Shown: piece by piece, positions 26,343 to 64,000 of the stretch
Layout: each line of letters opens with the position of its first letter
Position numbering within the stretch: the first letter of the stretch is position 1
NCBI GenBank assembly: GCA_044892525.1
Contig: CM097885.1
Span: 107,880,001-107,944,000, forward strand
From: Schmidtea polychroa
Lineage: Eukaryota
Reading direction: 5' to 3'
Length of the DNA: 64,000 bases
Translations under genes and position numbers: made by a program
Notes under the pieces: generated by a model
Seen by the model: the letters and a program-made list of their open reading frames with translations, nothing else
Database searches by the model: none
Told to the model about the DNA's origin: nothing

Positions 26343-27359
26343 ATGGTTTTATTACTTAATGGCAAAGTTGTAGAATTTAATCCTGATGAGTTAAGAGCTC
26401 TGTTGCGTGATCATCCATGCTCATTGGAGGCATATAAATTCCAAAATAAACCAGTTCAGGTCGTTGAAAATAATAAAAATTTATTATTTCTGCATCAAAG
26501 AGAAATGGGAATAATTACACAACAAGATCCAGCAGTTTGTTTCATTGGTACAGATGATGCGACAACTTGCCATTTCATAATATTAGATTGCATTAATGCC
26601 GGTTTGATTGGTGGAGCTCATCTTGATGGTTGTGGAACTGATTTATTCTTTGATACTTTCATATATCATGTGCGAAAAGCTTGTGAAAAATATAATTATT
26701 TAAGAAAATTGTCTACTTCTAAGAATCATTTAGCTGACAAAGAAACTACTGATATAACGGTGCAAAGTCAATTTGAAATTTCAGTTTTTGTTGTTGGTGG
26801 ATTTATCGATGATGATGGAACTTCAGAAAAGCTATCTAAAGATATTCTGTTGATTATGTCAGACAAATATTCAGATATAAATTTTCGATTAGAATTGTTT
26901 TGTGTAACAGATTTGAATAATCGGGTTAAAAGTGGTTATAATTATCCTATATTTTACGGTGGACTTTATAATACAAGAATTCATAAAATTTACCCTGCTT
27001 GCTTTGCAAAAAATGCCAAAGAACCTCAGCATATTTTACGTTCAACGAGATTTTGTTGCTCACCGACTATTTACAATGTTTATAATCCAGATGAATGCTT
27101 CCTACAACTAAACGATTTTGATTACAAAGGCTATGAAAATAGAGGTTATTATTTACAATTATCACAAGCTCCTGATAGTCGACTCCGAAAGTTTTCAACA
27201 TCTCCTAAACAAGAGAGAGAAGGGTATGAGGCTTCATTGAGGAATGTTTTCAGATTTATGTATGACAACCCTGAACCAAAACTTTCAATGTATGACGGTG
27301 ATTATGGAATGCGATATAAATGTGATAATAAAACAGGAGATTGGTTAATATATAAATGA
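26343..27359 (+). CDS. NTAN1: Protein N-terminal asparagine amidohydrolase (Nt-amidase of the Arg/N-degron pathway), 338 aa, intronless
   Basis: QREMG, GTDDATTCH (catalytic Cys region), HLDG, VGGFIDD, CVTDLN, YPIFYG and STSP motifs are collinear with metazoan NTAN1 over the full length. Confidence 0.95.
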   Translation: MVLLLNGKVVEFNPDELRALLRDHPCSLEAYKFQNKPVQVVENNKNLLFLHQREMGIITQQDPAVCFIGTDDATTCHFIILDCINAGLIGGAHLDGCGTDLFFDTFIYHVRKACEKYNYLRKLSTSKNHLADKETTDITVQSQFEISVFVVGGFIDDDGTSEKLSKDILLIMSDKYSDINFRLELFCVTDLNNRVKSGYNYPIFYGGLYNTRIHKIYPACFAKNAKEPQHILRSTRFCCSPTIYNVYNPDECFLQLNDFDYKGYENRGYYLQLSQAPDSRLRKFSTSPKQEREGYEASLRNVFRFMYDNPEPKLSMYDGDYGMRYKCDNKTGDWLIYK

Positions 27360-28999: not shown

Positions 29000-30669
29000 T
29001 CGGGCTTTTTAAATATTGATATGGCTTCTTTTCTACTTTTTTTCGCATATATGTTCACGAGGTACTTAATTAGGTTCATTCTATAATATTTGATCAGCTC
29101 GAAGTTGTCAATGACCCGTCCTCTGTCGTCTAACATGTATGTCGTGAGGGAGCTACCCTACCAGAAAGCTGATAATCGGAAAATTATGAGAATAATAAAA
29201 TCCACATCGAATAAGAATTTGTTATTAAAATTCTGTTGTAAGTTAATTTTTGAAAATGTTGCTCCTGCTGATAATATTACCATCTTGTTTTTTGCTTGGT
29301 TTTAAAATAATCTGCTTTTGTTCTTCCTTCTTTTCTTCTTCAGCATTTGTGAAAATTTCTTCTATCTTGTATTATCGTTATTCAAACAAACTTAAAAAAT
29401 ATTTAATTAATTATAAAATAATTAAACTAAATATAATATAATGTAATGCCAAGGCACTACCATGTGTATGAAAATGTGTAAGTACTTTTGTTGTAAAATT
29501 AAGACTAAGAAATTTGAATAATTAAAATTTATTTATATAAGTTACAATTTCTTCACAAATCATAATACAAATAACAATTAACAAATAAAGTATATTTAAA
29601 TATTTATATAATCCAACGTGTCCTTTTATTATTAAAACCACTATAATTAATAAACATTAATTATTAAACATCACTCTCATCCTCTTCATTTGTTTTTGCA
29701 TCTCTTCAGTCATTCAGTTCTTCTTGATTTGATTAAGTTTGGAAATTGTAATTCAACTTGTCTTGGTGATAAGAATTTTAAAATTTTGTAAGGTCCCTCA
29801 TATTGAATTCCCTCCTTCTTTCGTCTATGTGGTTCCAAACGAACTAATACTTAAATACTTAAAAATTTAAAATGTCTTTTGCCTGTTTAGGTAAAGATAC
29901 CCATCTTTCTATTCAGATTTCTTATCACTACTCGAATCGGCTCGATTTTCTTGGCGTGGTCGCCAGTTGCAATTTCTTCACAAATCATAATACAAATAAC
30001 AATTAACAAATAGAGTATTTAAATATTTGATGAAAAATTTTCAACTATGATGTTAAAGGCAATCTAAGTTAAGTTAAATTTATAGTTTATATTTTAGAAC
30101 TGATATAATTTTATAATTTATACTTTTAAGTTTATAATTTATATTTGGTGAAGTTCAATTTATAGTTTATATTCCTAAAGCTAATATAATTTTATAATTT
30201 GTATTTTTAAGTTTATAATTTATATTTTTATGAAGTTAATTTTATGGTTTATATTTTAAAGCTAATATAATTTTATAATTTATACTTTTAAGTTTATAAT
30301 TTATATTTGGTGAAGTTCAATTTATAGTTTATATTTCTAAAGTTAATATAAATTATTCCACATGGGTCTTGAGGGGAAGATTATGGTATTTGTTATTTTC
30401 TAAATCTATATATACATACACACATCCACATATATATACGTATACACATACACCCACACATATATACATATATGGATATAATTTAAATTAATAATATTGA
30501 TGCCGTTTTCCGGGGGGGGGGGGTGTTACTAAAAATAGATTTTAGTGATTTTCCGTAATTTTATTGGAAGATAGGGCCATTGAAACTAAATTTAGAGATA
30601 GGGGAATCCCAATTTCAATAATTTGTTATATAATTTTATTTTTATGAAATAAAGATAATTATTTTAATA

Positions 30670-30700
<31 letters not shown>

Positions 30701-33700
30701 AGTAATAATAATAGTAAGAGTNNNNNNNNNNNNNNNNNNNNNNNNNNNNNNNNNNNNNNNNNNNNNNNNNNNNNNNNNNNNNNNNNNNNNNNNNNNNNNN
30801 NNNNNNNNNNNNNNNNNNNNNNNNNNNNNNNNNNNNNNNNNNNNNNNNNNNNNNNNNNNNNNNNNNNNNNNNNNNNNNNNNNNNNNNNNNAACATTACTA
30901 CATATGGGGGGATCATTTTCGAAAATTTATGGAATTATTATTATTTTTTTTTTGGTTTGAAATACAATTTGACTCTACGAAGATGATACAATTCAGTATA
31001 CCTAAGGAATAGTTAATGGCTACATGATTTGAAGGGGGTTCATTTATGAAAATTTTCAATTTATATTTTAAAATATAATATAAGTTAAATATATATTAAG
31101 ATAAGCTAATTTAGTATATTTAGGTGGTAGTTGATGACTATATGGTTTATGGGGGGTCTTTGATGAAAAATTTTCAACTATGATGTTAAAGGCAATCTAA
31201 GTTAAGTTAAATTTATAGTTTATATTTTAAAGCTAATATAATTTTATAATTTATATTTTTATGAAGTTAAATTTATAGTTTATATTTTAGAACTGATATA
31301 ATTTTATAATTTATACTTTTAAGTTTATAATTTATATTTGGTGAAGTTCAATTTATAGTTTATATTCCTAAAGCTAATATAATTTTATAATTTGTATTTT
31401 TAAGTTTATAATTTATATTTTTATGAAGTTAAATTTATGGTTTATATTTTAAAGCTAATATAATTTTATAATTTATACTTTTAAGTTTATAATTTATATT
31501 TGGTGAAGTTCAATTTATAGTTTATATTTCTAAAGTTAATATAATTTTATAATTTATATTGTTAAGTTTATAATTTATATTTTTATGAAGTTAAATTTAT
31601 GGTTTATATTTTAAAGCTAATATAATTTTATAATTTATATTTTGATGAAGTTAAGTTTATAATTTATATTTTTAAAACTAATATAACTTTATAATTTATA
31701 CTTTTAAGTTTATAATTTATATTTTTATGAGGTTAAGTTAAATTTATAGTTTATGTTCTAAGACTAATATAATTTTATGATTTATACTTTTAAGATCATG
31801 ATTTATATTTTGAAGAAATTAAGATTATAATTTATACTTTTACAATCAACTTAGAGTTATAATTTATAATTTATAGTCAATGTAAATTTGTAATTTATAT
31901 TTTTAGGAAATTAAATTTATAATTTATACTTCTATAACTAATTATAATTTATATTTTTATGAAATTAGTATTATAATTTATACTTTTACAATCAACTTAG
32001 AGTTATAATTTATAATTTTTCAGTCAATATAAATTTGTAATTTATATTCTTAGGAAATTAAATTTATAATTTATACTTTTATAACTAATCATAATTTATA
32101 TTTTGAAGAAATTAAATCTATAAGTATAATTCATATTTTTATGAAATTGAGAGGATAATTTATACTTTTATGGGTTTACGATTTGTATTTTTATAGTTAG
32201 TTTAGAGTCTATTCAATTTAGTGTAGAATAATGTGAAGATGTTGCCCGAACTTATAAGTTATAGATATAATATTAGTAGTTTATAGATAAAGAGACTTTA
32301 TCAATATGTCTACGGGAATTTGCGCATACCAAGACCATTACGATAGAGAAATTTAGTTTGCATCAAAATAGGTTATTTTGTGGGCATCTATAGATATTAG
32401 TTCGCTTACCAGTGCGATTGAGATTATATCATCTTAGGTCCTACTCATCGCATGAACTTTAGGTTGCAGTATTCTTACAGGGAATGGTTCAAAATTTTTA
32501 AGTCTTTAATTGCCTTAAAAAAATTTTGCGCAGGGATCTCCTTGTTATTTTGAGTTAATTAGTTTCTTAGGTTCACATTGAATTTATAGTTTAAGAGGGA
32601 TTCGTTTAGAAATAACCAGCTACACTATCATGTTGTATTGTGTGAAATTTGAGTCAGGGGATATTCCCCGTTTATCAGTTCCTAATGTTGTGTGCAAAAT
32701 AGTATAATTTAAGTGTTAATTTAGGTATGTAAGTTAACGAAAAGGTCGATTTAATTAAAATTTACCTACTTTCCCGACTACACTGAGTACGGTACGATAG
32801 GCCCTATTGTAATATGTATCCACAATTAGTTTCCCATAATTATTTCGTCCGCATAGTCCCTGTGACTATGCCAACTACCAAGAAGGATTTATACGCCCTA
32901 CTCATGGTTAAACACCAATAGTTCGTGGCGACCTCTGGTTAAGATTATGATTTTAGTGCATGTAGGGTCGATGACCCGAAATCATTATGAACTGTGCATT
33001 CATAAATGATAAAGTGCATAGGTGCAGGTTTGGCTGGGATCTCGCTTCAAAATCATTGATAACCGACGATCTCATTCAAATCTACACCTCTATAATTAAA
33101 TAGAAATAATGAAAACAAGGTTTCAATAATAATAATTTATAATTCACAATGAAATCGTCCTTACTTACAATCTCAGAAAAATCAAAATCAAAAATTTGGC
33201 ATAAGAGTAAAAATATTCATTTTCATTTTTTTCCTTGCTTAAAAAGTGACGAAATGTGTTAGTTTATATAGCCTCTGTTTGACGTGTAAGTATACATGCG
33301 TGCATTGATGCAGTAAAACAAATTCAGATTATTTTAAATCTCGAACATTCGATTTTTAATTTTTATCGATTTTGATGGCAATTTTTCAGTAAGAATTTTT
33401 GTTTTTATTTTTGAAATTTTATTTTCGAATTATTTTTTATTAAATTTGCCTCCATGATGGATTTCAGCATTTCCAGAACAGTCCATGCTAAATTCAATCT
33501 ATTTCTTATTTTTAAATTGTTTTTTATGATTTCTTTTCTAAAATATTTATTTTTTAAACTAAAATATTTATTTTTTATAAATTTTATTGGGTCGTTTGGC
33601 CGTCATGGTGGATTTCGCCATTTTTATGAATTGTTCTGGATTTTTATTCAAAATATCGATATAATTTTCTTTACGTAAGATTTTATGAAGATTTTCTTTA

Positions 33701-37399: not shown

Positions 37400-39061
37400 T
37401 CAATTTAATTTAATTTTTTTTCTTTCGGAAAACAAATTGTCTCCTTTATTAAATAAATCCACCAATCCAACCAAATTGAATGGCGGCCCGTTTTTTAGGC
37501 ATTGAATTTTTGTTTCGTAAAATATTAGCTCCTTAATTTTAATCCATTCGTCTGGCGTACAACTTTTCAAACTATTTTTAATTGAATTTTCATATTTTAA
37601 CTCTTTTCTCATGACTATTTTTTTAGCAAAAAGAAGATTTTTAAAATAGACTTGATAATTGATTTCTGCCATTTTAGATTTGTAGATTTTCGAGCAAAAT
37701 TGACAGCTTTTAATAAGATAAATGTGGCATTTTTTGCACAATTTAATGTGATCTCTTAATCCACCAATATCATGAATAGGTTTACAGATTTTATTACACA
37801 GAGAGTAAATGTTTGTGTTTTTATGTGGTACCATTAACAGAGAAATGTGAACAAAAAACATGAATTGGCATCGATAAAGTCTATGAAATACGTAATTTTC
37901 GTGATTTTCAAACCTGGCTGTACAAACACAAACATGCTCTTCGGGTTTTAATCTTCGACATATATGGTGAAGCCCATTGGACATATTTATACATCCTTTA
38001 TGTCTATGCAAACATTTTTGGCATAGTTCTGGAAACTCGGTGAAGAACTTAAATAATTGCTGTTGTCTGTGATTATAAAATTTTGTTTCAAGTCTTCGGA
38101 TTTCAGTAGAATCGGAAATATTTTTCAAATATTTATTCAGTTCGAACCGAAAAATATTCTCAAATCCAATCAGAGACATAATTTCATCTGTTGAAACGTT
38201 GTGGTTTTGCTTGTAATTTACAAAAAATTTTGTCAAAGAACGAAGATTAACGTCAGAAAATTTCAATCGTTCTACTGATCTAAAAATGGAATTGAGTTTT
38301 GGAAATTCATTTTCAACTAAACTATCCATTACATCTGAGCAAATCTGGCACATCAACATTTCATTTTTGATACATTTCGAATAATCAATTATCCATGTTA
38401 TAAAATTACTGTAGTGTTTCTTACAATAATGACAAAACACATTCATTTTCGAATATTTTTTATCGCAGGCTAAATCGATCCAAGTAATCAACCAATGAAA
38501 TCCAGCCAATGAGCATTTAGGAAACGGTATTGGACATTTTTCTTTAGAAAAATATTTAATATTCAACGGTTGAATATGATCAAGATATTGTTGATGGTCA
38601 TCAAATATTTCACCACAAGGACATCCATGAGTGATGAGTTTCATCTCACGGCATTGATGATGGATTTCAGTTTGCTCTTTTAATCTCAGTCCACAAGTCA
38701 AACAACAAATAGGCTTTTCATTCAAGTACTTTTCGCATGCTTTCAGCCACTTGTCACAGTGATTTAACAATGAATTTATTGGAGATTCATATTCTTTGAG
38801 ATTTCTAGATAAATTTTCATTTCGGTTTTCTAACACAATATGCTCAACGATAGAAATTGATAAATATCTTTCCAAAATGGGAAATGAGGTATGATTGGAA
38901 TTTAATTTCGTATTTAAACGTAAATTTGAACATGCAAATTCATTAAACATAGATCCGCATTCGTTATTGCTTTCGTCAATATTTCTCAAAATTACTCTTT
39001 CAACATTAAAAGAACTTCTTAAATTTTTAATTTTATCTAAATATTTTAAAGAAAGCGTCAT
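37400..39061 (-). CDS. Orphan 553-aa Cys/His-rich multi-zinc-finger protein, intronless, with an internal duplication
   Basis: Longest ORF in the window. Two copies of HHxCRx6HxCxCx3Fx2Hx2Yx2H, each preceded and followed by CxxC pairs; basic C-terminal RKKIK (NLS-like). Confidence 0.8.
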   Translation of the reverse strand: MTLSLKYLDKIKNLRSSFNVERVILRNIDESNNECGSMFNEFACSNLRLNTKLNSNHTSFPILERYLSISIVEHIVLENRNENLSRNLKEYESPINSLLNHCDKWLKACEKYLNEKPICCLTCGLRLKEQTEIHHQCREMKLITHGCPCGEIFDDHQQYLDHIQPLNIKYFSKEKCPIPFPKCSLAGFHWLITWIDLACDKKYSKMNVFCHYCKKHYSNFITWIIDYSKCIKNEMLMCQICSDVMDSLVENEFPKLNSIFRSVERLKFSDVNLRSLTKFFVNYKQNHNVSTDEIMSLIGFENIFRFELNKYLKNISDSTEIRRLETKFYNHRQQQLFKFFTEFPELCQKCLHRHKGCINMSNGLHHICRRLKPEEHVCVCTARFENHENYVFHRLYRCQFMFFVHISLLMVPHKNTNIYSLCNKICKPIHDIGGLRDHIKLCKKCHIYLIKSCQFCSKIYKSKMAEINYQVYFKNLLFAKKIVMRKELKYENSIKNSLKSCTPDEWIKIKELIFYETKIQCLKNGPPFNLVGLVDLFNKGDNLFSERKKIKLN

Positions 39062-39460
39062 CTTTTATAATTCCTATTATATGCAATTTATTGATTTATT
39101 TAATAAATTTTTTTACTATTATCAATTAATTCATTAATTATCTAGATTTTTTCAAATAACTTTGAAATTGAGCGTCTAACCATACCAGGACAATTGTGAT
39201 CAACCAACGTGAATAGAGTGTTAGTAGGAATATGACCCATGGGATATTTGGCTTGAAAAAATTTAGGGTGGAGAGGTTTTTAATTTTTTCTTGTTTAAAA
39301 ACATTAAAATTTATTCTTAAATGAAAAAGTTCTCATAAAAATTTATATTAAAAATTATCTTTGTAAATTTCCATTAAAAACTATTTCATACAAATTTGTA
39401 TTAAAAATTTCATTATATTAAATTATTTCTCAAATGTAGGTGTTTTTGGAATATATAATA

Positions 39461-40465: not shown

Positions 40466-42850
40466 TACATTAAATACATTCATTTTTAAAATTATTACTT
40501 TAACTTACTTAAGTTAAATTTTTACTTTACTTTTTTTTAAATTATTACATATTTACTTTAATTTCCCAAGCGACAATGTTTCTTCAAAATAAAGTTACAT
40601 TAATATACCTTTTAAAATTGCATAAACCTAATTTAAAGAACATTACCTTAATTTACTTTTTTAATTAATGTAAACTTTATTTCTCAGTTAATAGCACTTC
40701 TTAAAAATCTACTGCTTATTTAAAATATTACTTTAATTTTAAATACTTTATCGCTTCTAAAAATAACTTACCATAAATTACTGTACAAAATACTCCCTTA
40801 CTATAGTGCTTCACATTGACATAAAAAACATGTCGGACACGGCAGCAAAGGCTATTTTAACTGTATTTTATAAATTTATTTTTATTGTGAAAAAATTAGC
40901 TAGAGTTTTTTAATTAATGAAAAAATGTTTCATTAAAAAATTAGGCTTATTGTTTAAATAAAATATTTATTCATGAAAAAAAATTTATTTTAAGTTTTTC
41001 AAAAATTAAAAAAATTTTTTTTCATTTAAATATAAATTTTAATGTTTTTATTCAAGAAAAAATATTTAGAGTTTTTTCATTGAAAATTTATTTTTATGCT
41101 TTTCAAGGAGAAGTGGGACTTCAAAAAATATCTTCAAGCCAAATATCCCACGAGTCATAGTCTTACTAATACTTACTAATACTCTACTAACGTGATGCCA
41201 TTACGTACTAGACAGCTTGAAAAAAAATATTGATTTTCCATTGTTATATTTTAATTAATTTTTCACTTCAATTTATTTTTTGAATTATGTTGTATTTGTT
41301 TTGTTGGGCTAGAACTGATTTCTAGACCCAAACTTCTAATTATGACTGAAATGTGTAGGTACACAACATGCAAAAAGCAAAAAGTATAGCTAAATATTAA
41401 AAACTACACCAAATAAACAATATTAATTAAAGGAGAAAATAACAAAAAAATAAACACAGAAATTAAATAAAATTATACAAAAGCAAGAAGTTATGCAAAA
41501 TAGAACTCAAAAATAACCAAATAAACACAGAGTTACAAAAAACAGACTCGAATAACTTAAAAACGGTAAAAACAGTATAAAATTCCAGAAAAACCCAGAA
41601 CATTCCATAAAAATGGCGATGACCATCACAAAAGCCATCTAGAACAACAAAAGTTAGAGAAAATAAATAAATTAGTATTAAAAATAAAAAATCTTAAAAA
41701 GAAATTCATAAAACATCAGTTAAAATAAAAATAAAATTAAAATTAACATGGAATGTTCTGGAACCGTTCCAAATCCATCATGGACGTCAAATTAACGAAA
41801 AATAATTAAAAAATAAAAACAAAAATTATGGCACAAAAATTGCCATTAAAAATAGCAAAATCGCAAAATAGAAAATTCTGAAATAAAAAGAATTCGAGTT
41901 TGTTTTACTGAATCAATACATACACGTGTACAAAATAGGTATATATACCGACACGTTTCGGTCATAATTTAATCACTTTTATGCCAATTTTTGAGCGAAA
42001 TCTTGTCAACACAAATAGTGAGTATTGATGATTTATTTTTCATTTTTATTGTATCGATGATTTATTGAGGTTAAAATTAAAGTGATTTTATAATTTTTCT
42101 GTTGAAATTATTTTTAAGTGATGTACGAATGTTCAACGGCGTACCGGTATTCCTGCGTCGTTGTTCGGTCCTGCATCCAATTTATTAAAATTTATAGGAC
42201 ATGCAGACATGCATTATTAATATTATAATGATCGCATATTATATGAATCTTTTTGTTCGGGTCCTTCGGAGGTCGAACTACTTCATGGTCCGGCCATGGA
42301 GTTGGGTCGAGGAAACCCTCCGTCTGACTCTTCGTATCTATTAAAGGTCAGCCGTAAATGGTTGACTTAATATACAACAGTAAGGTTTGTTGAAGTGGTC
42401 ACAGTGGGGCTGCGGAGGCAATAACTCTTCCCGACTTTTATTTAATACACATGTAAAATCAACATTCAAAATCATGAACAACGTCTCTACACTAAGGTCC
42501 TAATTTGAGTAGAACTCATACCTAAATTTACACAATTCTGCAATCACATCAATGTAGCTGGTTGATCAATAATAGTAATTTCAAGTATACTTAGACAGAT
42601 GCCGAACTAGATTTTGTAATAGGAGTTTATTGTAAAGTAATGGAAATGAGAAAGATAGTCGGCATATGCATAAGTATGACTTAATCTAGATAGGCTAATT
42701 CAAAGTAAATGTAGGTATTCTAAATCCAATTCCCACTTTAAAATATGCACAAATGTATGAATACTTAGTTACCATTTTACAATTATTTGTAAGATCTTAG
42801 AGATAATGATATTGAGGTAGATCATTAATGGAAAATCCCGATTAGAAGTT

Positions 42851-43103: not shown

Positions 43104-45052
43104 CATTTTGGAAAACTATGATGATCTCACCAAAGTAAACCATCAAAAGTCATGTAAGCTGACTAGAAGTCCAGAAATTGTAAAGTATATAATTATAAAA
43201 TTATAAAATTATATAAAAAAATTATATAAATTATATAAAATAATATAAAGTTATATAAAATTATATAATTATAAATCCTAAAGTATAAAAACCTAAAATC
43301 GTGAATTATTGTAAACTTCAAAATATATAATTATAAATTAGAAGACCTAAATCCCTAAATGGTAAAACATAAAATTATACTACCATTATTATTATTATTA
43401 ACACTATTATTATTATTATTGTCACTAAGGTTATCATCATTATTACTATTATTATTAGTATTGCTGTTANNNNNNNNNNNNNNNNNNNNNNNNNNNNNNN
43501 NNNNNNNNNNNNNNNNNNNNNNNNNNNNNNNNNNNNNNNNNNNNNNNNNNNNNNNNNNNNNNNNNNNNNNNNNNNNNNNNNNNNNNNNNNNNNNNNNNNN
43601 NNNNNNNNNNNNNNNNNNNNNNNNNNNNNNNNNNNNNNNNNNNAATTATTAATCTTATTTCATAAAAATAAAATTATAAAACAAATTATTGATTTTGGGA
43701 TTCCCCTATCTCTAAATTTAGTTTTAATGGCCCTATCTTCCAATAAAATTACAGAAAATCAAAAAAAAATCTATTTTTAGTAACACCGCCCCTGCAAACG
43801 ACATCAATATTATTAATTTAAATTATATCCATATATGTATGCAGGTGTGGGTGTATATGTATATATATGTGAATGTGTGTATGTATATCCAGATTTATAA
43901 AACAACCTTACAATAATACGATAACCTCCAAGACCCATGTTATATAATGGCCACAACCCCTTTAAGGTAATAGCATGAAGAAAAATAATTTACTAAAGCA
44001 ATTTATTAAAATAATTTATTAAAATTATTAGATTTATTTTCAACTCAAATCAAAAAGAGACTAAATTTATTAATTTCAATCACTAAATTTCTGACAAAAT
44101 TAGGTTCAAATCAAATCAAAAGACGAGACTCAATTGTAAACTAAGTTTATTAATTTCAATCACCAAATTTATTTACATCATGGTTTCTTTGAATCATATT
44201 CATGCCAAAGTCCTTCGAGTACAGTTGATGGACCAGCCCAATGAAATACATCTCCTGGGGTTGGAAAGCTTTTGGGTGATTCCTTACTTTCCCCTTCAGG
44301 TCTTTTCTTTTCTTGGTTCAATGACTTGCATATTGCTTTGATGTAATAATGTTAGATGGTCAACTATATTCCTTGCATCTCTTTTGAGTGGTCATTGTCA
44401 GGTAATTCCGCCAGGAAAATTAGTTGGTGGAACTGACCTTGGGGCAACCAAGTCTTCATACCTCATCGAATTGTTATAAACCCGACTACTAAGGAAATCT
44501 CTGAATTTTCTCGTTGATGTTGTCGGCGATCTTTGCTCATCAGGGGTGTCATGATACGTTGTTGGTCAAAGGTGATTGTTTCGGGAGTTCGGCCGACTAC
44601 TGATATTACTGAAATATTATTAAAAAGTTTATGATATAAATATTTAATATTTTAATTTATTTACATTATTATATCGAAATTAACTAAAAATTATATACTT
44701 ATTCGAAATTTACTATTTACCATTAATTGTAATTACAATAATAAAACAACGAAAATTTAAATAATGTTAAATGACTTTGACAAAACCAAAAGTGATAATG
44801 AAATCAAAATTCCATTACTCTATTTAAATTATTAGTTACCAACTTTTTCTATTGGATAAAATTCCTTCTAATTTAATTAATTAAAAATCATATCGGTAAA
44901 TTAAATCGAAAAATTCATGTTAAAAGTATTCATATTAATTTTAGTAAAATTAGTAGTTAAAGTATTATTTATTTTTCTTGGTATATTTTATCATAACGTC
45001 AATTTGTAAGCCACATTGGCGATGCGCGGGTCTTAATATTTATAATACAGGC

Positions 45053-45417
45053 ATGTCCCAATCAGACGATTACAGTGATGAAGAAACCCACCGGCAAATG
45101 ATGACCCGGATCCGTACGCGGTATATTTGGTACCGCATCCACGACTGGAATCGTGGATTGGACCTTGACAACTTTGGCCCGTTATCAGAAGTGGCCCGGA
45201 ACCGGATGCCCCGGCATGGGTGAAGACGGAGCCGGAGAACAACACACTCCGAGAGGCCCGGGATCAAGCAGCCAGTGATGTGGAAGCCGCTCAGATCCGG
45301 CTGAAGCAAATAGAATTGCAAATTTGAGCCAAGAGAGAGGGAGTATCCCTGGAAGAACTCGAGGAGGCCGAGACAACTCCACGAAAGAGAGGAAGGCCCC
45401 GCAAGCATGCCGTGTGA
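45053..45417 (+). pseudogene. Cargo ORF-A1 (paralogue of 50551-51033): coiled coil plus C-terminal AT-hook, disrupted
   Basis: The N-half WYRIHDW matches WYKIHDW. After a frameshift near 45170 it reads KTEPENNTLREARDQAASDVEAAQIRLKQIE (matches KVEPYLNHAS...DAIDRLHRLE), then a premature TGA at 45325, then TPRKRGRPRK. Confidence 0.7.
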
Positions 45418-45684
45418 TTATGGGATGACAATTTACTTGACTATTTTATTTGTATATGAACTAAATAATAGAAGTTGTCGGTGTTTAATTCATTTTCATT
45501 TGTACATTAGTTAAATATGAGTAGTCGTCGGGTGTTTATTCTCGAGTAAAATATCTTCCTTTTGTTCTGTAAATCACTTGATAGATGGAGGAGTTGTAGA
45601 GATGCCCTAGTAGAAAGCGTTACTATTAATTCATTAATTTTACTACTTATTTGTTTAAATTTTCCTTGAGCGTAATCGGTACTA

Positions 45685-46170
45685 ATGAAATTCCTTTTAG
45701 TGTACAAATTAATGGAGAATCTACGTAAAGATCGGGAGCAGGCCCAACAACAAGCCGACGAACTCCGAGTCCGAGGGAATAAGTTGAAAAGGAAATGTCG
45801 GGAGCTCGGGGGGACCTGGTTTAGTCCCGAGGCAATGAAAAAGAAAACAGCTCAGATTCTCCAACTGCAGACACAAGCAAATCAAGACCAAATGGAGATC
45901 CGCGCCCTGAAATTGCAGGTGCGGGCACTCGAAACCGAGCGTAATGAACAATTTATCCAGGAAGCCGTGGCACGACAAATACGGCCGCTGACCGTTGAAC
46001 TCGCAACAATATATCCTCCAGCCGCGGAAGGTAAACCCAAACGAAAGCGGCTTGGACGGAACATTCGGGAGAAGTTAAAAAAGGCCAGATTGGCCGAGTT
46101 CGAACGGCAAGCAAATTCATCGCAAGCGTCTACGACGGGGTTGGCCAGCTCTACCAACAAGCCGATTTGA
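45685..46170 (+). CDS. Cargo ORF-B1: coiled-coil protein with a basic C-terminal patch, unknown function
   Basis: GC-rich ORF homologous over its whole length to 51450-51914 (DREQAQ, CR..xTWF, QLQ, QDQ.E.RAL, IRPL). Homology starts right after a shared TTTAG/TG acceptor, so the true 5' end may be spliced. Confidence 0.75.
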   Translation: MKFLLVYKLMENLRKDREQAQQQADELRVRGNKLKRKCRELGGTWFSPEAMKKKTAQILQLQTQANQDQMEIRALKLQVRALETERNEQFIQEAVARQIRPLTVELATIYPPAAEGKPKRKRLGRNIREKLKKARLAEFERQANSSQASTTGLASSTNKPI

Positions 46171-49100
46171 ACCTGTATTCTGTTTTATATATTTCTGTAG
46201 TATGCCTTGTATATTTGTGTAGCATTAAAATAATAAATATTCTTGTGGTGTTAAAATAGTAATTTTTAGTATCAAATAATGTCTGATATATTTTATGATT
46301 GTGTTGGGCTAGAACTGATTTCTAGACCCAAACTTCTAATTGTGACTGGAATGCGTAGGTACACAGCATGCAAAAAGCAAAAAGTATAGTTAAATATTAA
46401 AAACTACACCAAATAACCAATGTAATTAAAGGAAAAAAACAACAAAAACCTAAAACACAGAAATTAAATAAAATTATACAAAAACAAGAAGTTATGCAAA
46501 ATCTAACTCAAAATAGCCAAATAAACACAGAGTTACAAAAAACAAACTCGAATAACTTAAAAGATGGTAAAAGTAGCAAAAAATTCCAGAAAAACCCAGA
46601 ACATTCCATAAAAATGGCGATGACCATCATAAAAGCTACCTTAAACAATAAAATTTAGAAAAATAAATAAATTAGTATTAAAAATAAAATTTCTTAAAAA
46701 GAAATTCGTAAAATATCAGTTAAAAATAAAAATTGAATTAAAAGTAATATGGAATGTTCTGGAACCGTTCCAAATCCATCATGGAGGAAAAATTAGCAAA
46801 AAATATTTAGGAAATAAAATTTTAAAAATAAAAATAAAAATTATGACGCAAAAATCGCCATTAAAAATATCAAAATTACAAAATAGAAACTTCTGGAATA
46901 AAAAGAATTCGAGTTTGTTTTAATGCATCAATACATACACGTGTACAAAATAGGTATATATACCGACGCATTTTGGTCACAATTTAATCTTTTTATGCCA
47001 AAATTTTTCTTGAAAAATTCGGAACCCACTAATAGTAAGGACGATTGATTAATTTTATCATGATTGTTATTTAATTTATAATTGTTATTTTATTATTTGT
47101 GATTTCATTTCATTATATTGATTAACTTTTTGTTTTTTTTGTTTAATCTTACTATTACGAAATAAGAGTGAACAGCATTGTGAACGGGTTATAGTCACTA
47201 TACTGGTCAGCCTTGTTTCCAATTTAAAGACTACATGCACCATTTTTGGGTCTACGACCCCACATGCATGAAATATAAACCCCTTTTATTAACCGGAGGT
47301 CGCCACGAACTAATGGTTCTAACCAGGAGTAGGGCGGTAAACCCATACCGGTAGTTGGCATAGTCATAGGGACTATGCGGACGAAATAAACTTCGGGAAA
47401 GTAATCGCGGGAAACATACTACAATAAGGCCTATCGTACCGTATCCAGTTGGGTCGGGAAAGTAGGAAAATTTTAATTAATTTGACTTTTCAGTAAACAA
47501 CATACCAAAAATCAACACTTAATTCTGATATAGGAAACAGACCACTAGGATCATCTAAACGGGAAATATCCCAGACTCAAATTAATATAGGGACTTTCGG
47601 TAGTCGGCTAATTGCTTAAACTCATATCTGATATTAACTAAATTTAGTATTGTTATTCATAATTTTGTTTAATGTATTTTGGTTCACGATCAATAAATAT
47701 TTTATAAATCCCTCAACAATTTTTATTGCCTTTATGCATATCGAAATGTAAATGATATAAAATCTTCAAAGAAAATTTTGAGTCCTAATAATACTATCCA
47801 TTTGGGTGCCCTTACTACTATCATGCTTGGTTTTCTAACATTACCTTAGTTAAGGGTATATCCTTGCCATATAATGGCATATATAAGTATATTAAACTTT
47901 CTTAATACATATTTACCTTATGTTTAGAAAAGGATAAATTATAGATTTTCTCAAATGACCCCGGCATATATATATACCACCCAAATGTCCTAAAGGAACC
48001 TATTTTAATGTATAGTTTTAGATAGTGATATGTTCAAATGATAATTTAGCAATTCCCATCCTTAGGATCCTTATTATTATTAATTATTATTATTAATTTC
48101 CAAAAATGTATTATCTTATGGAAGTATATAGGAGTATACAGTTCCCTTAAAGTATATTTAACTTATATTAGGTTCAGAGAAAGCTAAATCACAACTTTCT
48201 TAAATGACCCCCCCCCCCCGAAATATACCTTCATTAACCGTTGTGCCCTATTATTATTATTATTATCATCTCCATCATTCTTACTAATATTATTGTTACA
48301 ACGAGCATTATTATTAATATATTTCGTGTTAGTATTATTACTATTAATTTAATATTGCTATTACAATGAGTATTATTATTATTACTATTAATTTAATATT
48401 GTTATTACAATGGGTATTATTGTAAAAATATNNNNNNNNNNNNNNNNNNNNNNNNNNNNNNNNNNNNNNNNNNNNNNNNNNNNNNNNNNNNNNNNNNNNN
48501 NNNNNNNNNNNNNNNNNNNNNNNNNNNNNNNNNNNNNNNNNNNNNNNNNNNNNNNNNNNNNNNNNNNNNNNNTTATGGTTATTCTTATTAANNNNNNNNN
48601 NNNNNNNNNNNNNNNNNNNNNNNNNNNNNNNNNNNNNNNNNNNNNNNNNNNNNNNNNNNNNNNNNNNNNNNNNNNNNNNNNNNNNNNNNNNNNNNNNNNN
48701 NNNNNNNNNNNNNNNNNNNNNNNNNNNNNNNTTATCCTTATCATTAGTATTCTTATAATAATTATCATTATTATTACTGTTAGGATTATTATTGTAGTTA
48801 CTATCACTGTTGTCATTATTATTATTATTAGGATGATCATTATTAATGTTCTTGATATTACTGTTTTAGTGCTATTACCATTAACACTTCCACTCTTATC
48901 ATTGCCACTATTATTATCACTACCCTTGTCATTGCGTTGTTAATTAATTATTACAAATTTTTTTAATTAGCAATTTGGGATCCCCCTATGGCTGAAATTA
49001 ATCGCAAGAACCCTACCTTGTTACTATATAACCTACTTCAACAAATATACTGATTTCCCTAATGTTACTAAAAATAGAACCGATATTATCGATTTCCTGT

Positions 49101-56675: not shown

Positions 56676-56786
56676 AGTAGATGGATTGGGCACCGCTGGC
56701 ACAGGGCACCGCTAGCACAGTACCCCCCCTCCCCCCCCGTCGGTAAGATTTTCAAAAATATTCTAAGTCTAAAAGTACATTTTTTT

Positions 56787-57446
56787 TTCAAGGTCAAATT
56801 TAAACAAAGACATATGACTCATCAAGGTCATTGAAACAAAGACCATGAGTCATCCTATGACTCATAAAATTTTTCAAGGTCATTTAAACAAAGACCATGA
56901 CTCATCCGATGACTCATCAAGGGCATTTTCAAGGTCATATGACTCATAGTATGACTCAGATGACCTTGAAAATTTTTTTCAAGGTGATATGACTCATCCT
57001 ATAACTCATCAAGGTCATTTTCAAGGTCATATGACTCATAGTATGACTCATCTGACCTTGAAAAATTTTTTTTCAAGGTCATATGACTCATCCTATGACT
57101 CATCAAGGTCATTGAAACAAAGACCATGACTCATAGTGTGACTCACCAAGGTCATTTTCAAGGTCATATGACTCATCAAGGTCATTTTCAAGGTCATATG
57201 ACTCATAGTATGACTCATTTGACCTTGGAAATTTTTTTTTCAAGGTCATATGACTCATCCTATGACTCGTCAAGGTCATTCTCAAGGTCATATGACTCAT
57301 CCGATGACTCATCAAAATTTTCAAGGTCATTTTCAAGGTCATCTGAGTCATCCTATGACTCATCAAGGTCATTTTCAAGGTCACATGACTCATCCAAGGT
57401 CATTCCCAAGGTCATATGAGTCATCGCGATGACTCATCAAGGTCAT
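56787..57446. repeat. Polinton subterminal tandem/inverted repeat array built from TGA(C/G)TCA and (T/C)CAAGGTCA
   Basis: About 25 copies of each motif by manual count, some inverted to form hairpins (TGACCTTGAAAAA..TTTTCAAGGTCA). Confidence 0.9.
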
Positions 57447-57601
57447 ATTATTATTTTTAAAAAATATTATTATTTTTATTATTATTTTTAAAAATATTAT
57501 TATTTTATTTTTAATTTTTTCAAAGTTCCCGCCAACGAAAATTAATAATCGATAGCTCATTTTAAAGCTCAATCCAAGACCTTTCGAATGAGCCATATAT
57601 C

Positions 57602-57795: not shown

Positions 57796-58296
57796 TTAAA
57801 CAATAAAATAATGTAAAATTAACAAAGGTAAACTAAATATTGATGCACTTCTATTCGCAGCATTATTGTTAGAAATTGGTAACGTTGAATTGATTTTCAG
57901 ATATTCTATTGATCCTTTGATTGTTTGAATTTCTCTTAATAATAATTCAATCTTTTTTAACAAATAATCATGCTTCTTATCAATAATCTTCATATTCTTT
58001 TTATTTTCAGTAATAGAGTTATTGAAAACCTCAATATGATCAATCAATTTAATTTTTATATTTTGTATATATTCAAATGTTAGTTCATAACTGTTTTCTA
58101 AATTCTCCAATCTTTGAGATATTCTTTTTCCTGGATGCTTTGACCATTTTGGTTTATCGAGAATATATAAAATATCCATCAACTTGGCTGTATTCGGACA
58201 AACACATATTGATTTATTAAAAGACTCCACCGTTATTGTTGTATTGTGTGAGCACACACTCGTTATAATAATTAGCAATATGAATAGAGTTTTCAT
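57796..58296 (-). CDS. Polinton accessory protein: signal peptide, coiled coil, C-terminal hydrophobic (GPI-signal-like) tail, 166 aa
   Basis: MKTLFILLIIITSVCS signal peptide; five N-x-S/T sequons; heptad-rich middle; NNNAANRSASIFSLPLLILHYFIV end; TATAAAT upstream. Confidence 0.7.
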   Translation of the reverse strand: MKTLFILLIIITSVCSHNTTITVESFNKSICVCPNTAKLMDILYILDKPKWSKHPGKRISQRLENLENSYELTFEYIQNIKIKLIDHIEVFNNSITENKKNMKIIDKKHDYLLKKIELLLREIQTIKGSIEYLKINSTLPISNNNAANRSASIFSLPLLILHYFIV

Positions 58297-58321
58297 GGTG
58301 TATCAAATCAAAACCTTTCTT

Positions 58322-58375
58322 TTACATTTATAGTCTATCAACCAATCAAAATCATCCGGTATTAGTATAAATAAA
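58322..58375. promoter_or_regulatory. Divergent promoter with two TATA-like boxes around a CCAAT box
   Basis: TATAAAT on the minus strand at about 58326-58332, AACCAATCA at about 58340 and TATAAATA at about 58367, between the ATGs at 58296 and 58402. Confidence 0.5.
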
Positions 58376-58401
58376 ACATCATATTTTAAATTATTGTAAA
58401 A

Positions 58402-58922
58402 ATGTCTCAATTTATGGAAAATCTTTTAAGAGAACTCGTCAACAGGAATATTATGGAAAGCCTATGTTTCCTGGTCGATCGGACCGAAAAGATTATAGAA
58501 GGTAATCACATTGATTATGACGATGTGATCAATTCTGATTGTCTCGAAACCAAAAAATTCTATTTTAATAGAATTTTTAACTGTCTATGCGACGATCAGA
58601 TGAAGTGGACCCGAATACTAGTAGGGTTCGCTTATATGAAAATAATAATCCAAAGAAGTCTATGGGACTCAGAGCACTATTATCAGTGGTCTCAAGAAGT
58701 AATACTTTTATAATTTATATTTTATTAATATTTATTTTCTAGATAATCAAGTCAAAGTTTCAACCATGGATTGAAGCCAATGGCGGATGGGGAGTACTCA
58801 ATCAACTCGCCAGAAATGCAAAAGAAATAGACGATCAGAAAAGAAAATTTAAAAACTATGTAAAACTTGCAACAGGTGTTGCTATTTTGTATATTTTAAC
58901 CAGATTTTTAAATAAAAATTAA
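58402..58922 (+). CDS. Bcl-2 family protein, 158 aa, two exons (58402-58698, 58743-58922; 44-nt intron)
   Basis: BH1-like LCDDQMKWTRILVGFAY. Splicing GTAATA...TTCTAG (phase 0) gives WSQEIIKSKFQPWIEANGGW, aligning without gaps to Bcl-xL WMATYLNDHLEPWIQENGGW. C-terminal tail anchor LATGVAILYILTRFLNKN. Confidence 0.88.
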
Positions 58923-59511: not shown

Positions 59512-59922
59512 TTAAAATATTTGTGAAAGTCTAGCAGACATAATTTTCCAAATAGGAGAATATACATCATTATTATCAACTTTATATCCCTGGATTGCAA
59601 TTGTTATATACCAATTTTCATTTTCTTTGAAAGCGATTTCATCAAAGGAATCATAAAATCTTGCATATTTATTGTTGAACCATGCATGTTGATTACACGA
59701 TAGATTCGAATCTATCCGTTTAAAAACATCATCAATAGTTTTGACATCAATCATTGAAAGCGTGCCGGATAAGAATTCAAATTTAGTTGGAATTAGCTTG
59801 ACTGGTGCAACCAATTTCATATTGATTTCTTCTTTCAAAAAATACATTTTGTAGTTGTGGAACATTTGAACTGGTTGTACCATTTCTTTAGGTTTTTCGG
59901 TGCTTGAAATTTTCTTGGTCAT
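59512..59922 (-). CDS. Polinton hypothetical protein, 136 aa (beta-rich C-terminus)
   Basis: ATG-initiated ORF with TATAAAAA about 40 nt upstream and CCAAT at about 59983; no confident family. Confidence 0.65.
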   Translation of the reverse strand: MTKKISSTEKPKEMVQPVQMFHNYKMYFLKEEINMKLVAPVKLIPTKFEFLSGTLSMIDVKTIDDVFKRIDSNLSCNQHAWFNNKYARFYDSFDEIAFKENENWYITIAIQGYKVDNNDVYSPIWKIMSARLSQIF

Positions 59923-60276
59923 CGTGAATAATGAATAAATTTAAATGTTACAGGGTTTTTATACCTTTGACTCATGCCTATCAACCAATCAGATTATAGC
60001 ATGTCTTTGTTTAAATTGCATTCAAAATGCATTGATGTTGCATTGTCACATGTTCTATTTACAGATTTATTATTAATGTTTAAATTATTACATGTTTTGA
60101 TATATGTACAGATTTATTATTAATATGTTTCATTATTATTAATGTTTTTACTATTATTACTATTCATATTTCTATTACTATTATTATTACTATTATTATT
60201 ATTACTATTATTATTTCAAATATAAAACACAATAAAACACAATAAAAAAGATAAAACACAATAAAAAATACATTTA

Positions 60277-60765: not shown

Positions 60766-61203
60766 TTAGAAATCGACCAATGAAATTATCTCATTTCGAA
60801 CATTGTCAACAAATTCTCTATACTCCAAATTTCTCAACCCCAACATGACAACCTTTCCACTAGCAAACACGTTGACACATATAGGGTTATATTTTAATAG
60901 TCTTAGTGCCGGAAACAATTCCGGTTCAAACATACAATCACATTTTTTCGACATGTTATATAGATTGATACTATGTCCCATATCCATAGTAACGGTAATT
61001 GATTGGATTTTAATATTATTTATTCGATATTGTAATTTATTAATATCCAAAGGTTTCTTACATCCCATGATTCTGCATTTACCAGTCTTGAAAAATATTA
61101 TCGGATATTTCCCACTTCTATCGATAATTTGCTGGGGTTTCCCTGGTGGGAACCTCATATTCGATACATCAAAATTTCCTCGATAATTTATATTTGCTAA
61201 CAT
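60766..61203 (-). CDS. Compact TATA-binding-protein-like protein, 145 aa
   Basis: Both TBP repeats are recognisable: LANINYRGNF...IIFFKTGKCRIMG and IQSITVTMD...FEPELFPALRL...VNVFASGKVVMLG. Confidence 0.85.
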   Translation of the reverse strand: MLANINYRGNFDVSNMRFPPGKPQQIIDRSGKYPIIFFKTGKCRIMGCKKPLDINKLQYRINNIKIQSITVTMDMGHSINLYNMSKKCDCMFEPELFPALRLLKYNPICVNVFASGKVVMLGLRNLEYREFVDNVRNEIISLVDF

Positions 61204-61302
61204 TATTAAATCATTTATGAAAATTAGTCTTTATATACAAATTGAGCACGAGTTCATTAAATCATCGAATATAAACAAATACACATTTATAAAATATTTG
61301 AA

Positions 61303-61929
61303 ATGGAATTAAGAAATGATGCTGTATACCAAATCGTTGGTCCGAGTGGTAGTGGAAAAACATTATTTGTTTGTAAATTACTAAAATCCAATTTATTCAA
61401 ATCAAAATTCAACAGGATTTATTGGCATAGGGGTGCTGATGAAGAACATGGATTAACTCAATCAAGTTTCTGTAAATTAAAAAACATGAAAATAGTAAAG
61501 GGATTCGATAAAAACTGGTCCAGCCGATTAAAGAAAGGCGATGTCATTATTATCGATGATTTGTATCAAGAAGCTAATAAAGAAAAAGATTTTAATAATT
61601 TATTTACAAAGATTAGCAGACATGTCGGTGTAACAGTTATTTTCATAACTCAAAATCTATTTCATCAAGGTGGGGCACATCGAACACGTAATTTAAATGT
61701 ACAATATTTAGTCATTTTCAAGAATCCTAGAGATGCAACAGTGATTGATTTTCTTGCACGTCAAGCATACCCTAACAATCGTAATTTTCTTATCAGTGCA
61801 TTTCAAGATGCTACAAAAATACCTCATGGATATATATTTCTTGATTTCACACAACAATGTCCCGATGATTTACGTGTAAAAACAGATATTTTCAACCCAA
61901 AAGGTGCCATGGTTTATAAACAAAGTTGA
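61303..61929 (+). CDS. Polinton packaging ATPase (A32/FtsK-HerA-like), 208 aa
   Basis: Walker A GPSGSGKT, Walker B VIIIDD, and SRH, ITQ and FKNPRD motifs typical of Polinton ATPases. Confidence 0.92.
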   Translation: MELRNDAVYQIVGPSGSGKTLFVCKLLKSNLFKSKFNRIYWHRGADEEHGLTQSSFCKLKNMKIVKGFDKNWSSRLKKGDVIIIDDLYQEANKEKDFNNLFTKISRHVGVTVIFITQNLFHQGGAHRTRNLNVQYLVIFKNPRDATVIDFLARQAYPNNRNFLISAFQDATKIPHGYIFLDFTQQCPDDLRVKTDIFNPKGAMVYKQS

Positions 61930-62484: not shown

Positions 62485-62712
62485 ATGGGTGCTAATCCTT
62501 CATTGCCCGACATTAAATTTAATTTTAAATCTTCTTGTTGTAATGGAGAAGATTTGGACGAACCCAGAAGACGAAGCCGGTTTCGGTGGAGTGGCAAAAT
62601 TAAACAAAAGAGTTCCGAATTCGAAAAAAGAAACCCAGAAGTGGTTATCAGATCAGCTTGCGTACAGTTTGAACAAACCAATGCGGAAAAGATTTCCAAC
62701 AAGAGCGTATAA
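62485..62712 (+). CDS. Candidate small ORF with an N-myristoylation signal, overlapping the integrase start in another frame, 75 aa
   Basis: ACAATGG start context; MGANPS (MGxxxS), a CC pair and a basic cluster; fills the gap between the core-protein stop and the integrase ATG. Confidence 0.45.
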   Translation: MGANPSLPDIKFNFKSSCCNGEDLDEPRRRSRFRWSGKIKQKSSEFEKRNPEVVIRSACVQFEQTNAEKISNKSV

Positions 62713-62930
62713 AACATTTGGTATTGACGATTTATGGCAAATGGATTTGATGGAGATGATACCATATTCGAAAATTAACAATGGGAATAAATATATTTTA
62801 ACATGTATTAATGTATACAGCAGGTTTGCACGAGCAATACCAGTCAAGGCAAAATCTGCAGAAGAAATGTCCAAGGCAATTAATATTTTATTTAAAGATG
62901 GACATCCTAATAATTTGCAAACAGATTTAG

Positions 62931-63001
<71 letters not shown>

Positions 63002-63631
63002 TTAGGTAAAGAATTCTACAATAGCAAAGTTAAGCAAATCCTCGATAAACTGAAAATAAATCACTACTCGGTACATTCTCAATACAAAGCTGCCCATGTT
63101 GAAAGATTTAATCGAACATTGAGAGATAGATTAAAGAAATTGTTCGTGCATCAAGGTAATAAAAAATGGGTAAATGCTTTACCGAAAATAATAACAAGTT
63201 ATAATCATTCATCACATCGAGGACTGAATGGATTGAGACCGGTTGATATTACATCAAAAACACCATTATCTAAAAAATCTGTAAAAATTGCAAAACCTAA
63301 ATATAAAGTCGGTGACCATGTTAGAATTAGTAAAATTAGTGCATCACCATTTATTAAAAATTTTGATACAAATTGGAGTGATGAAGTCTTTGTAATTTCA
63401 AAAATAAATACTAAACAGAATCCTGTAATGTATGTCATCAAAGACAATGATAATAATATTGTACAGGGGAAATTTTATGAGCAGAAATTACAAGTCATTC
63501 CTCCCCCAAAAGTATTTAGAATTCAAAAAATATTGAAAACTAAAAAGGTCGGTAAGGATAAACAATACTATATCAAATGGCACGGTTATCAAAACCCGTC
63601 ATGGATATCGTCAAAAGACCTAGTAAAATGA
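62543..63631 (+). CDS. Polinton retroviral-type DDE integrase with a C-terminal chromodomain; 337 aa after removing the 75-nt intron 62931-63005
   Basis: WQMD, QTDLG/KEF and VERFNRTL catalytic motifs; chromo-like FRIQKIL...YYIKWHGY...SW. Likely start ATG is 62543 (MEKIW). Confidence 0.92.
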
Positions 63632-64000
63632 ATTTTTATATTATTTTACCTAGCAATAGCTGTCCACTTATTCATCCAGATAATAAAGCCAGCAAATTCA
63701 GGGTCAATCTTCAAAATCCGATATATTTGGATAATAGCTGGGAAGTTGCTCTGTTGGATTTTACATTTGTATACCAAGCCTTTCCATTTTATAGTAAGGC
63801 TAAAATTGGATACAAAAAGAATGAGTGGCCGGATAGATTATTGTCTATGATCATTGATAATGCAGATGATGAAGTTCGGTTGTCTAACTCAACTGATCCA
63901 GCTGTGAAAATGTATATTAACCATTCATATATAGTAGTTGAATGTAAACATTATCCTTTTACTGTAAAATTTGATAGTTTGGAAATGGCAAAACGATTGG
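63628..64000 (+). CDS. Polinton minor capsid protein (penton), N-terminal part; runs off the window
   Basis: ATGA overlap with the integrase stop; MNFYIILPSNS...HPDN..SKFRVNL..PIYL..SWEVAL is the typical Polinton penton N-terminus; frame open to the window end. Confidence 0.85.
   Translation, partial: MNFYIILPSNSCPLIHPDNKASKFRVNLQNPIYLDNSWEVALLDFTFVYQAFPFYSKAKIGYKKNEWPDRLLSMIIDNADDEVRLSNSTDPAVKMYINHSYIVVECKHYPFTVKFDSLEMAKRL

Follow-up and report, generated by a model that had tools for sequence, protein, structure and literature searches.

A dense, ordered two-motif array of AP-1 and NR5-type words near the probable end of a Polinton/Maverick element, and its possible regulatory role

How integrated Polintons come to be activated in animals is, to our knowledge, an unsettled matter. 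It is raised here by a tandem array in a window of 64,000 nucleotides (the whole stretch of DNA analysed), which a sequence-only reading had described as the terminal array of a Polinton, made almost entirely of sites for two families of host transcription factors. If the end of an element is made of exact sites for factors from two named host families, its activation becomes directly and cheaply testable.

The features to the right of the host part of the window are as follows.

56676..56786 (+): candidate left terminus, beginning AGTAGA; 49% GC, against 32% in the preceding 676 bp; 16-bp duplication; C-run
56787..57446: motif array
57526..57533 (+): single TTCCCGCC, an E2F-like word, sole copy in the window
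57796..58296 (-): 166-aa ORF pointing towards the array; weak coiled-coil-type Pfam matches below cut-off
58297..58401: divergent intergenic region of 105 bp with CCAAT (58342) and a TATA-like box; closest putative promoter to the array
58402..58922 (+): two-exon Bcl-2-like gene (weak match), GT-AG intron at 58699-58742
59512..59922 (-): 136-aa ORF with conserved counterparts in 6 related loci
59923..60020 (-): upstream region of the 136-aa ORF, with, in order, the ACAAAGAC module, CCAAT (59985), an AP-1 site (59968) and a TATA-like box
60766..61203 (-): TBP-like gene, PF00352 E 1.6e-15, also in 10 related loci
61303..61929 (+): A32-type packaging ATPase, PF04665 30.3 bits (cut-off 22.8), 542 homologues
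62543..63631 (+): retroviral-type integrase with chromodomain, PF00665 E 1.1e-5 and PF00385 E 0.0013, both below cut-off when scored with a (TTA)n insertion left in
63577..64000 (+): beginning of a further conserved element gene, no family match, cut off by the window edge

The combination of an A32 ATPase with an integrase-chromodomain protein resembles that of animal Polinton/Mavericks of the alpha-adintovirus-like kind, as does the conserved gene order. A metagenome scan, from which 80 of 113 confirmed ATPase relatives were kept, supplied the remainder: the closer relatives have the gene order in common, with the TBP-like gene in 10 loci and the 136-aa ORF in 6, and two of them (L009 and L020) carry ORFs of 1218 and 1089 aa with the KxxNxxYGK and GDTDS motifs of PolB, for which Pfam gave only Endonuclease_7. 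The same two loci have ORFs whose size and place fit capsid proteins and a cysteine protease, with no informative Pfam match. In L009 the integrase homologue, at 57% identity, scores 48.3 bits, above the rve cut-off. From the ATPase, the integrase-chromodomain, and the gene order and PolB motifs of the relatives, we therefore assign the element to the Polinton/Mavericks with good confidence, as the earlier reading had done.

Polintons have AG-type termini and a 6-bp target-site duplication. The AGTAGA at 56676, directly preceded by GACGTC, is a candidate end only. The array is thus described as probably terminal, about 110 bp inside the left end, with the other end outside the window. Among the genes that follow, the Bcl-2-like one scores below the cut-off (PF00452 E 0.01), and its best PDB matches are to Bcl-2-related A1 (E 0.14); according to the available part of PMC6431247, the planarian Burro element likewise has BCL-2 cargo. 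Three small ORFs lie between this gene and the TBP-like gene, which is head to head with the ATPase. The word TATAAAC is found at 61270, 61915, and 62398, before the ATPase, a 177-aa ORF, and the integrase. Within the integrase, an in-frame (TTA)n insertion at 62932-63001 is bounded by GT and AG, and relatives align across it without an insert; it is either an intron or a microsatellite insertion.

The array itself holds exactly 25 copies of TGA(C/G)TCA in its 660 bp (22 TGACTCA and 3 TGAGTCA) and exactly 25 of (T/C)CAAGGTCA (22 on the + strand, 3 on the -), which bears out the earlier estimate of about 25 of each; dinucleotide shuffles of the array (n = 1000) give means of just 0.36 (maximum 3) and 0.06 (maximum 2), respectively, and the remaining ~63 kb of the window has 5 and 2, although such counts alone say little, because any tandem array multiplies the content of its unit. 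We take TGA(C/G)TCA to be the AP-1 (TRE) consensus, best with A and T flanks, ATGA(C/G)TCAT to be the optimal bZIP site, and (T/C)CAAGGTCA to be the extended half-site of NR5A/NR5B/ERR monomers; the AP-1 and NR5/ERR labels stand for a match to consensus words. Both the A and the T flank are present in 22 of the 25 AP-1 words. There are also two one-mismatch copies of each word.

That the array consists almost entirely of such sites holds as a majority: the two exact words span 400 of the 660 bases (61%), rising to 490 (74%) once the flanking A/T and an AACAAAG module are added. The two motifs had also been said to alternate, and this they do not strictly do; sites come singly or in pairs, in the order NANAANAANAAnANNAAnNAANAANNANNAAnNANNAANNAANNANNAAN (A for AP-1 words, N for receptor words). 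Certain spacings recur: A-A 12 (11 times), N-A 11 (11 times), A-N 7 (9 times), and N-N 12 (8 times). Internal duplications are seen at offsets of 92-94 and 167, by which the array was built. Inversion of some sites into hairpins had likewise been proposed. Three receptor sites are indeed inverted (56961, 57053, and 57220), and just one of them forms a perfect hairpin:

56804..56811 (+): first copy of the ACAAAGAC module
56961..56987: receptor site in inverted orientation, opposed across an A/T run by a forward copy with one mismatch; perfect over a 10-bp core, at 56963-56985
57053..57081: two receptor sites, one inverted and one forward, together forming a perfect 13-bp inverted repeat
57220..57248: third inverted receptor site with a forward copy, an imperfect hairpin with a mismatch

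The array strand as a whole folds strongly (z -11.2, 20 shuffles), which we treat as a by-product because the array words are near-palindromic.

Unit lengths of 12, 18, 30, and 42, all multiples of three, bring to mind low-complexity coding sequence rich in His, Gln, and Gly. ORFs of 97 aa (+) and 94 aa (-) overlap the array, and in viral contigs the receptor word does encode Gln-Gly-His repeats. The A/T runs of the array, however, vary in length, and inverted units are interspersed. A coding origin is very improbable, because successive AP-1 sites shift between reading frames 8 times, and we have set it aside.

Variation among the copies is more informative as to function. In a sample of 27 + 27 copies with at most one mismatch each, distinct changes number 4 in the 378 letters at the 14 core positions, none of them shared between copies, as against 9 in 107 for fixed-length spacers (Fisher p 3e-4), while the two tolerated positions are variant in 7 of 54 copies, always with the tolerated letter, as against 4 of 378 for the core (p 7e-5); both p values overstate the case, because array copies are related by duplication and were picked at one mismatch or fewer. 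The one-mismatch rule favours clean cores, and a C-to-G change at the AP-1 centre equals inversion of the site. The N-A spacer has a fixed length of 2 bases in 14 composites, in both orientations, with five different sequences; its letters vary in 5 of 28 cases, those of the cores in 1 of 196. This pattern, read from sequence, supports the view that selection keeps the cores and spacings of the array, and not the spacer letters.

Our preferred reading, the chances of which seem to us about even, is that the array is a putative cis-regulatory cluster or enhancer for the element's own genes, one that host bZIP and NR5 (FTZ-F1/HR39) factors would read. The most serious alternative is a neutral or nearly neutral minisatellite, in which slippage and strand switching multiplied a short promoter fragment near the end, and the two motifs are matched partly by inheritance and partly by luck. 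The clear duplications at both offsets are what such a process would leave, and a genome scan inspects very many arrays. It fits less well that changes are mostly in spacers and tolerated positions, that changes which break a core are all single-copy, and that spacer length is kept while the letters change. Nor is the pairing of motifs easily had by chance: of 20,000 trials with random 30-base units, 0.6-0.7% gave a unit with two distinct words from a panel of 22 motifs of at least 7 bases, a figure under one percent that a larger panel, or many scanned arrays, would raise. We regard this origin as unlikely.

A third module links the array to promoters inside the element. There are four copies of ACAAAGAC in the array (56804, 56836, 56888, and 57117), each just 5′ of an AP-1 site, and none in the 56.7-kb host part of the window. 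The same module precedes CCAAT, an AP-1 site, and a TATA-like box upstream of the 136-aa ORF, and 17 bases of the array's first spacer are identical there. This identity with an internal promoter can be claimed for the minisatellite as well. In related elements, a composite of ACAAAGAC with a bZIP site, as AAAGAC followed by a CRE, occurs in the non-coding DNA of 2 of 20 groups, with 3 matches against 0.05 expected for a pattern that was defined only after one of the loci (L005) had been seen; L005 has two of the copies and L016 the third, and in L005 the composite, accompanied by CCAAT and TATA, precedes a TRAF-like gene. L016 also has, at about 1352-1370, a non-coding, 18-base perfect palindrome centred on a CRE; its contig may be chimeric, as the first ~380 bases look bacterial by eye.

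A de novo search for k-mers in non-coding DNA (17 of 33 close loci plus the window, 15 groups) gave modest enrichment of AP-1 words (4 groups, 1.0 expected) and of ACAAAGAC (4, against 0.5), and found CAAGGTCA in none of the 15 groups. The array words were not at the top: the strongest k-mer was TATAAACA, in 14 of 15 groups against 3.8 expected. The single TTCCCGCC to the right of the array resembles what we take to be an E2F site, and may be a chance occurrence.

Conservation of the array in relatives had been named as a check on the sequence-only reading, and it was not found: none of 84 loci has such an array (at most 4 AP-1 and 2 NR5 sites), and blastn gave no matches, which is weak evidence of absence, since the sequence upstream of the ATPase extends to 3,857 bp in only 5 of the 80 relatives. 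Nothing recognisable as an element end was seen at the 14 left ends of relatives that were read, nor were there terminal inverted repeats in the 4 long related loci checked. Some relatives have tandem arrays of their own: L026 at 1-244 (14-base units), L018 at 737-1032 (21), L008 at 1-89 (6), and L020 at 1-127 (33). The array of L026 is comparably placed, and between it and the first ORF come one AP-1 site and a TATA box; neither this array nor that of L018 matches any panel motif well. Unrelated arrays in related elements are what neutral expansion would also produce.

They are equally what would be expected if a site and the protein that binds it co-evolve, so that each related group has its own array sequence. 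As a further possibility, then, the array may consist of iterons, whose TGAC/GTCA half-sites would be bound by an element protein (the integrase, the polymerase/terminal protein, or an accessory factor) that pairs the ends or loads the replication machinery. Subterminal repeats bound by transposases are found in other DNA transposons, and here too the array lies about 110 bp from the probable end, with fixed spacings, and the N-A junction forms a palindrome, GTCATATGAC. Against this, two words, each a host-factor optimum with tolerated variants, are not expected for one element protein. The ORFs of the window, with half of the element outside it, include no sequence-specific DNA-binding domain besides the TBP-like gene. 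We consider iterons improbable.

Viral contigs were searched as well. The ATPase alone, or a 33-sequence alignment, retrieved no relatives from them; a 19-base array word gave single, unrelated matches in 4 loci, and an AP-1/AP-1/NR5 pattern gave none. A tandem NR5 pattern was met in at least 124 loci, none with more than 2 AP-1 sites among the matches listed; the richest among these, with up to 29 receptor-like words, are Gly-Gln/Gly-His repeats. Arrays of receptor-like words can thus arise for other reasons, another point that may be counted towards the minisatellite. The stretch is present, whole or in part, in 20 of the 24 sequencing runs listed, none of these on record as an RNA run; this is no evidence either way.

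Two loci among the relatives have further genes of interest. The left arm of L005 encodes a dual-specificity phosphatase, a TRAF-like protein (RING, zinc finger, and MATH), and a RING protein (190-705, 1545-2732, and 2867-3328), which we read as stress and immune signalling cargo; L009 has a gene for a ubiquitin-conjugating enzyme (222-719, - strand; PF00179 E 1.6e-12).

Clusters of host-factor sites are already known from viral and mobile elements; what is new here is a dense two-motif array at a probable Polinton end. The literature searched, which excluded most subscription journals and Repbase Reports, yielded no account of host-factor sites arrayed at the end of a Polinton. Retroviral LTRs and the enhancers of polyomaviruses and papillomaviruses have a few repeated AP-1 or hormone-receptor sites that time expression. 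The clustering is alike, but here there are about 25 of each site, in an invertebrate DNA transposon or virus.

Among the closest known systems are the homologous regions (hrs) of baculoviruses. In the available part of PMC13513840 these are non-coding repeat regions, 390-880 bp long, that contain palindromes and clusters of bZIP (TRE/CRE) sites and serve also as replication origins; over 7 hrs, enhancer strength goes with the number of CREs plus TREs (r 0.90-0.93; same source, in the part available). The units of an hr, however, are ~72 bp with a 30-bp palindrome, interspersed in a circular genome, as opposed to 12-18 bp here, and the sites of the present array are exact, with the NR5 word making up half of them, at the end of a linear, integrating element. 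Given these differences in units and element, the array is not a baculovirus hr, and may be hr-like in function.

Adenovirus inverted terminal repeats offer a second comparison. Like the array, they have host transcription-factor sites at the end of a linear genome, which is replicated by protein priming, but these (a core origin with NFI and NFIII/Oct-1 sites) are single sites within 116-209 bp, with a role in replication and for different factors (PMC6410123, available part). This suggests a further alternative, in which host factors bind the array mainly to aid replication from the end, or to keep the end free of nucleosomes, rather than to enhance transcription. The terminal position agrees with it, as do the help that NFI and Oct-1 give to protein-primed replication at adenovirus ends and the double role of hrs as origins and enhancers (as far as the parts available of PMC6410123 and PMC13513840, respectively, go), and possibly the strong folding noted above, owed though it is to near-palindromic words. 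The adenoviral sites, on the other hand, are single and within the first 90 bases, whereas 50 sites begin here at about 110 bp, and the ACAAAGAC module is shared with internal promoters. A role mainly in replication seems to us quite improbable.

To return to the putative enhancer, the array is real, unusually dense, and well ordered, and for such an array a function is plausible. The proposal is that short promoter modules were tandemly amplified and would have been kept as host proteins read them. A bZIP word and an NR5 monomer word are repeated at fixed spacings, and selection would act on cores and spacings and leave the spacer letters free. Host Jun/Fos-type dimers and FTZ-F1 or HR39 might then bind cooperatively and open the chromatin at the end of the element. 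The enhancer would act on element genes, first through the divergent promoter 0.85-1.6 kb away (the Bcl-2-like gene and the 166-aa ORF), a region whose promoter function is suggested by its CCAAT and TATA-like boxes, and would turn the element on in stressed, differentiating, or germline cells. More speculatively, the element's TBP-like protein could then drive the genes preceded by TATAAAC.

A cluster for host bZIP proteins and monomeric receptors, as first suggested, is consistent with the sparing of cores by variation and with the AP-1/CRE module that promoters in this element and in two related groups have in common, and it has tested analogues in baculovirus hr enhancers. The proposal that ERR might be a reader fares worse: ERR is reported missing in Schmidtea mediterranea, where FTZ-F1 and HR39 appear present, in a table available in flattened form (PMC8363021, in part), so that FTZ-F1 or HR39 would be the candidate readers if the host is a triclad. 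In the parts available of the respective reports, schistosome FTZ-F1 binds an SF-1 element in EMSA (PMC8673669), and in tumours of the fly Ftz-F1 works jointly with Fos, downstream of JNK (PMC4610234).

As to timing, planarian Polintons are described as targets of piRNAs, repressed by them, and desilenced or more active on differentiation (PMC8532177, available part). A JUN/FOS motif marks the chromatin of schistosome germline stem cells, with no enrichment in two other species (PMC11398382, likewise in part), and germline timing is therefore as good a guess as the wounding suggested earlier. The available part of PMC10558129, from the group of PMC8532177, reports that in planarian promoters the presence of a motif alone does not predict regulation, and that Polintons are in a repressed compartment. 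The parts available of PMC12660999 and PMC9849279 gave no AP-1 or NR5 motif content.

A bolder and more tentative version, possible but in our view doubtful, would make the end of this Polinton a two-input switch: a super-dense bZIP and NR5 enhancer of fixed grammar, together with a family-wide AAAGAC module, would link the activation of an endogenous DNA virus, one that carries TBP-like and Bcl-2-like genes of its own, to host states in which stress/JNK and FTZ-F1/HR39 coincide, for example regeneration or the germline. Each family would amplify a different host-factor code, and each insertion would plant enhancers in the genome of a regenerating animal. If the regulatory reading is right, the principle of hrs and inverted terminal repeats, that host factors are recruited by repeated terminal sites, would extend to Polintons, and Polinton ends would be candidate mobile enhancers. 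If it is wrong, the array is a useful caution: a minisatellite can take the form of a motif-perfect array.

The host part of the window has features of its own. A single-ORF host gene for an N-terminal asparagine amidohydrolase lies at 26343-27359 (+; PF14736 E 2.7e-51), and a Cys/His-rich ORF of 554 aa, with no convincing Pfam match, at 37400-39064 (-). Between about 30 and 47 kb are long, diverged inverted repeats 13-15 kb apart (30392-33645 and 43644-47498), direct repeats 5 kb apart (41299-42013 and 46299-47028), and an 81-base tandem array (30071-32123); the repeats of this region are probably nested old transposons. At 5401-5581 there is an inverted repeat of 90 bp, 99% perfect, with a 1-base loop.
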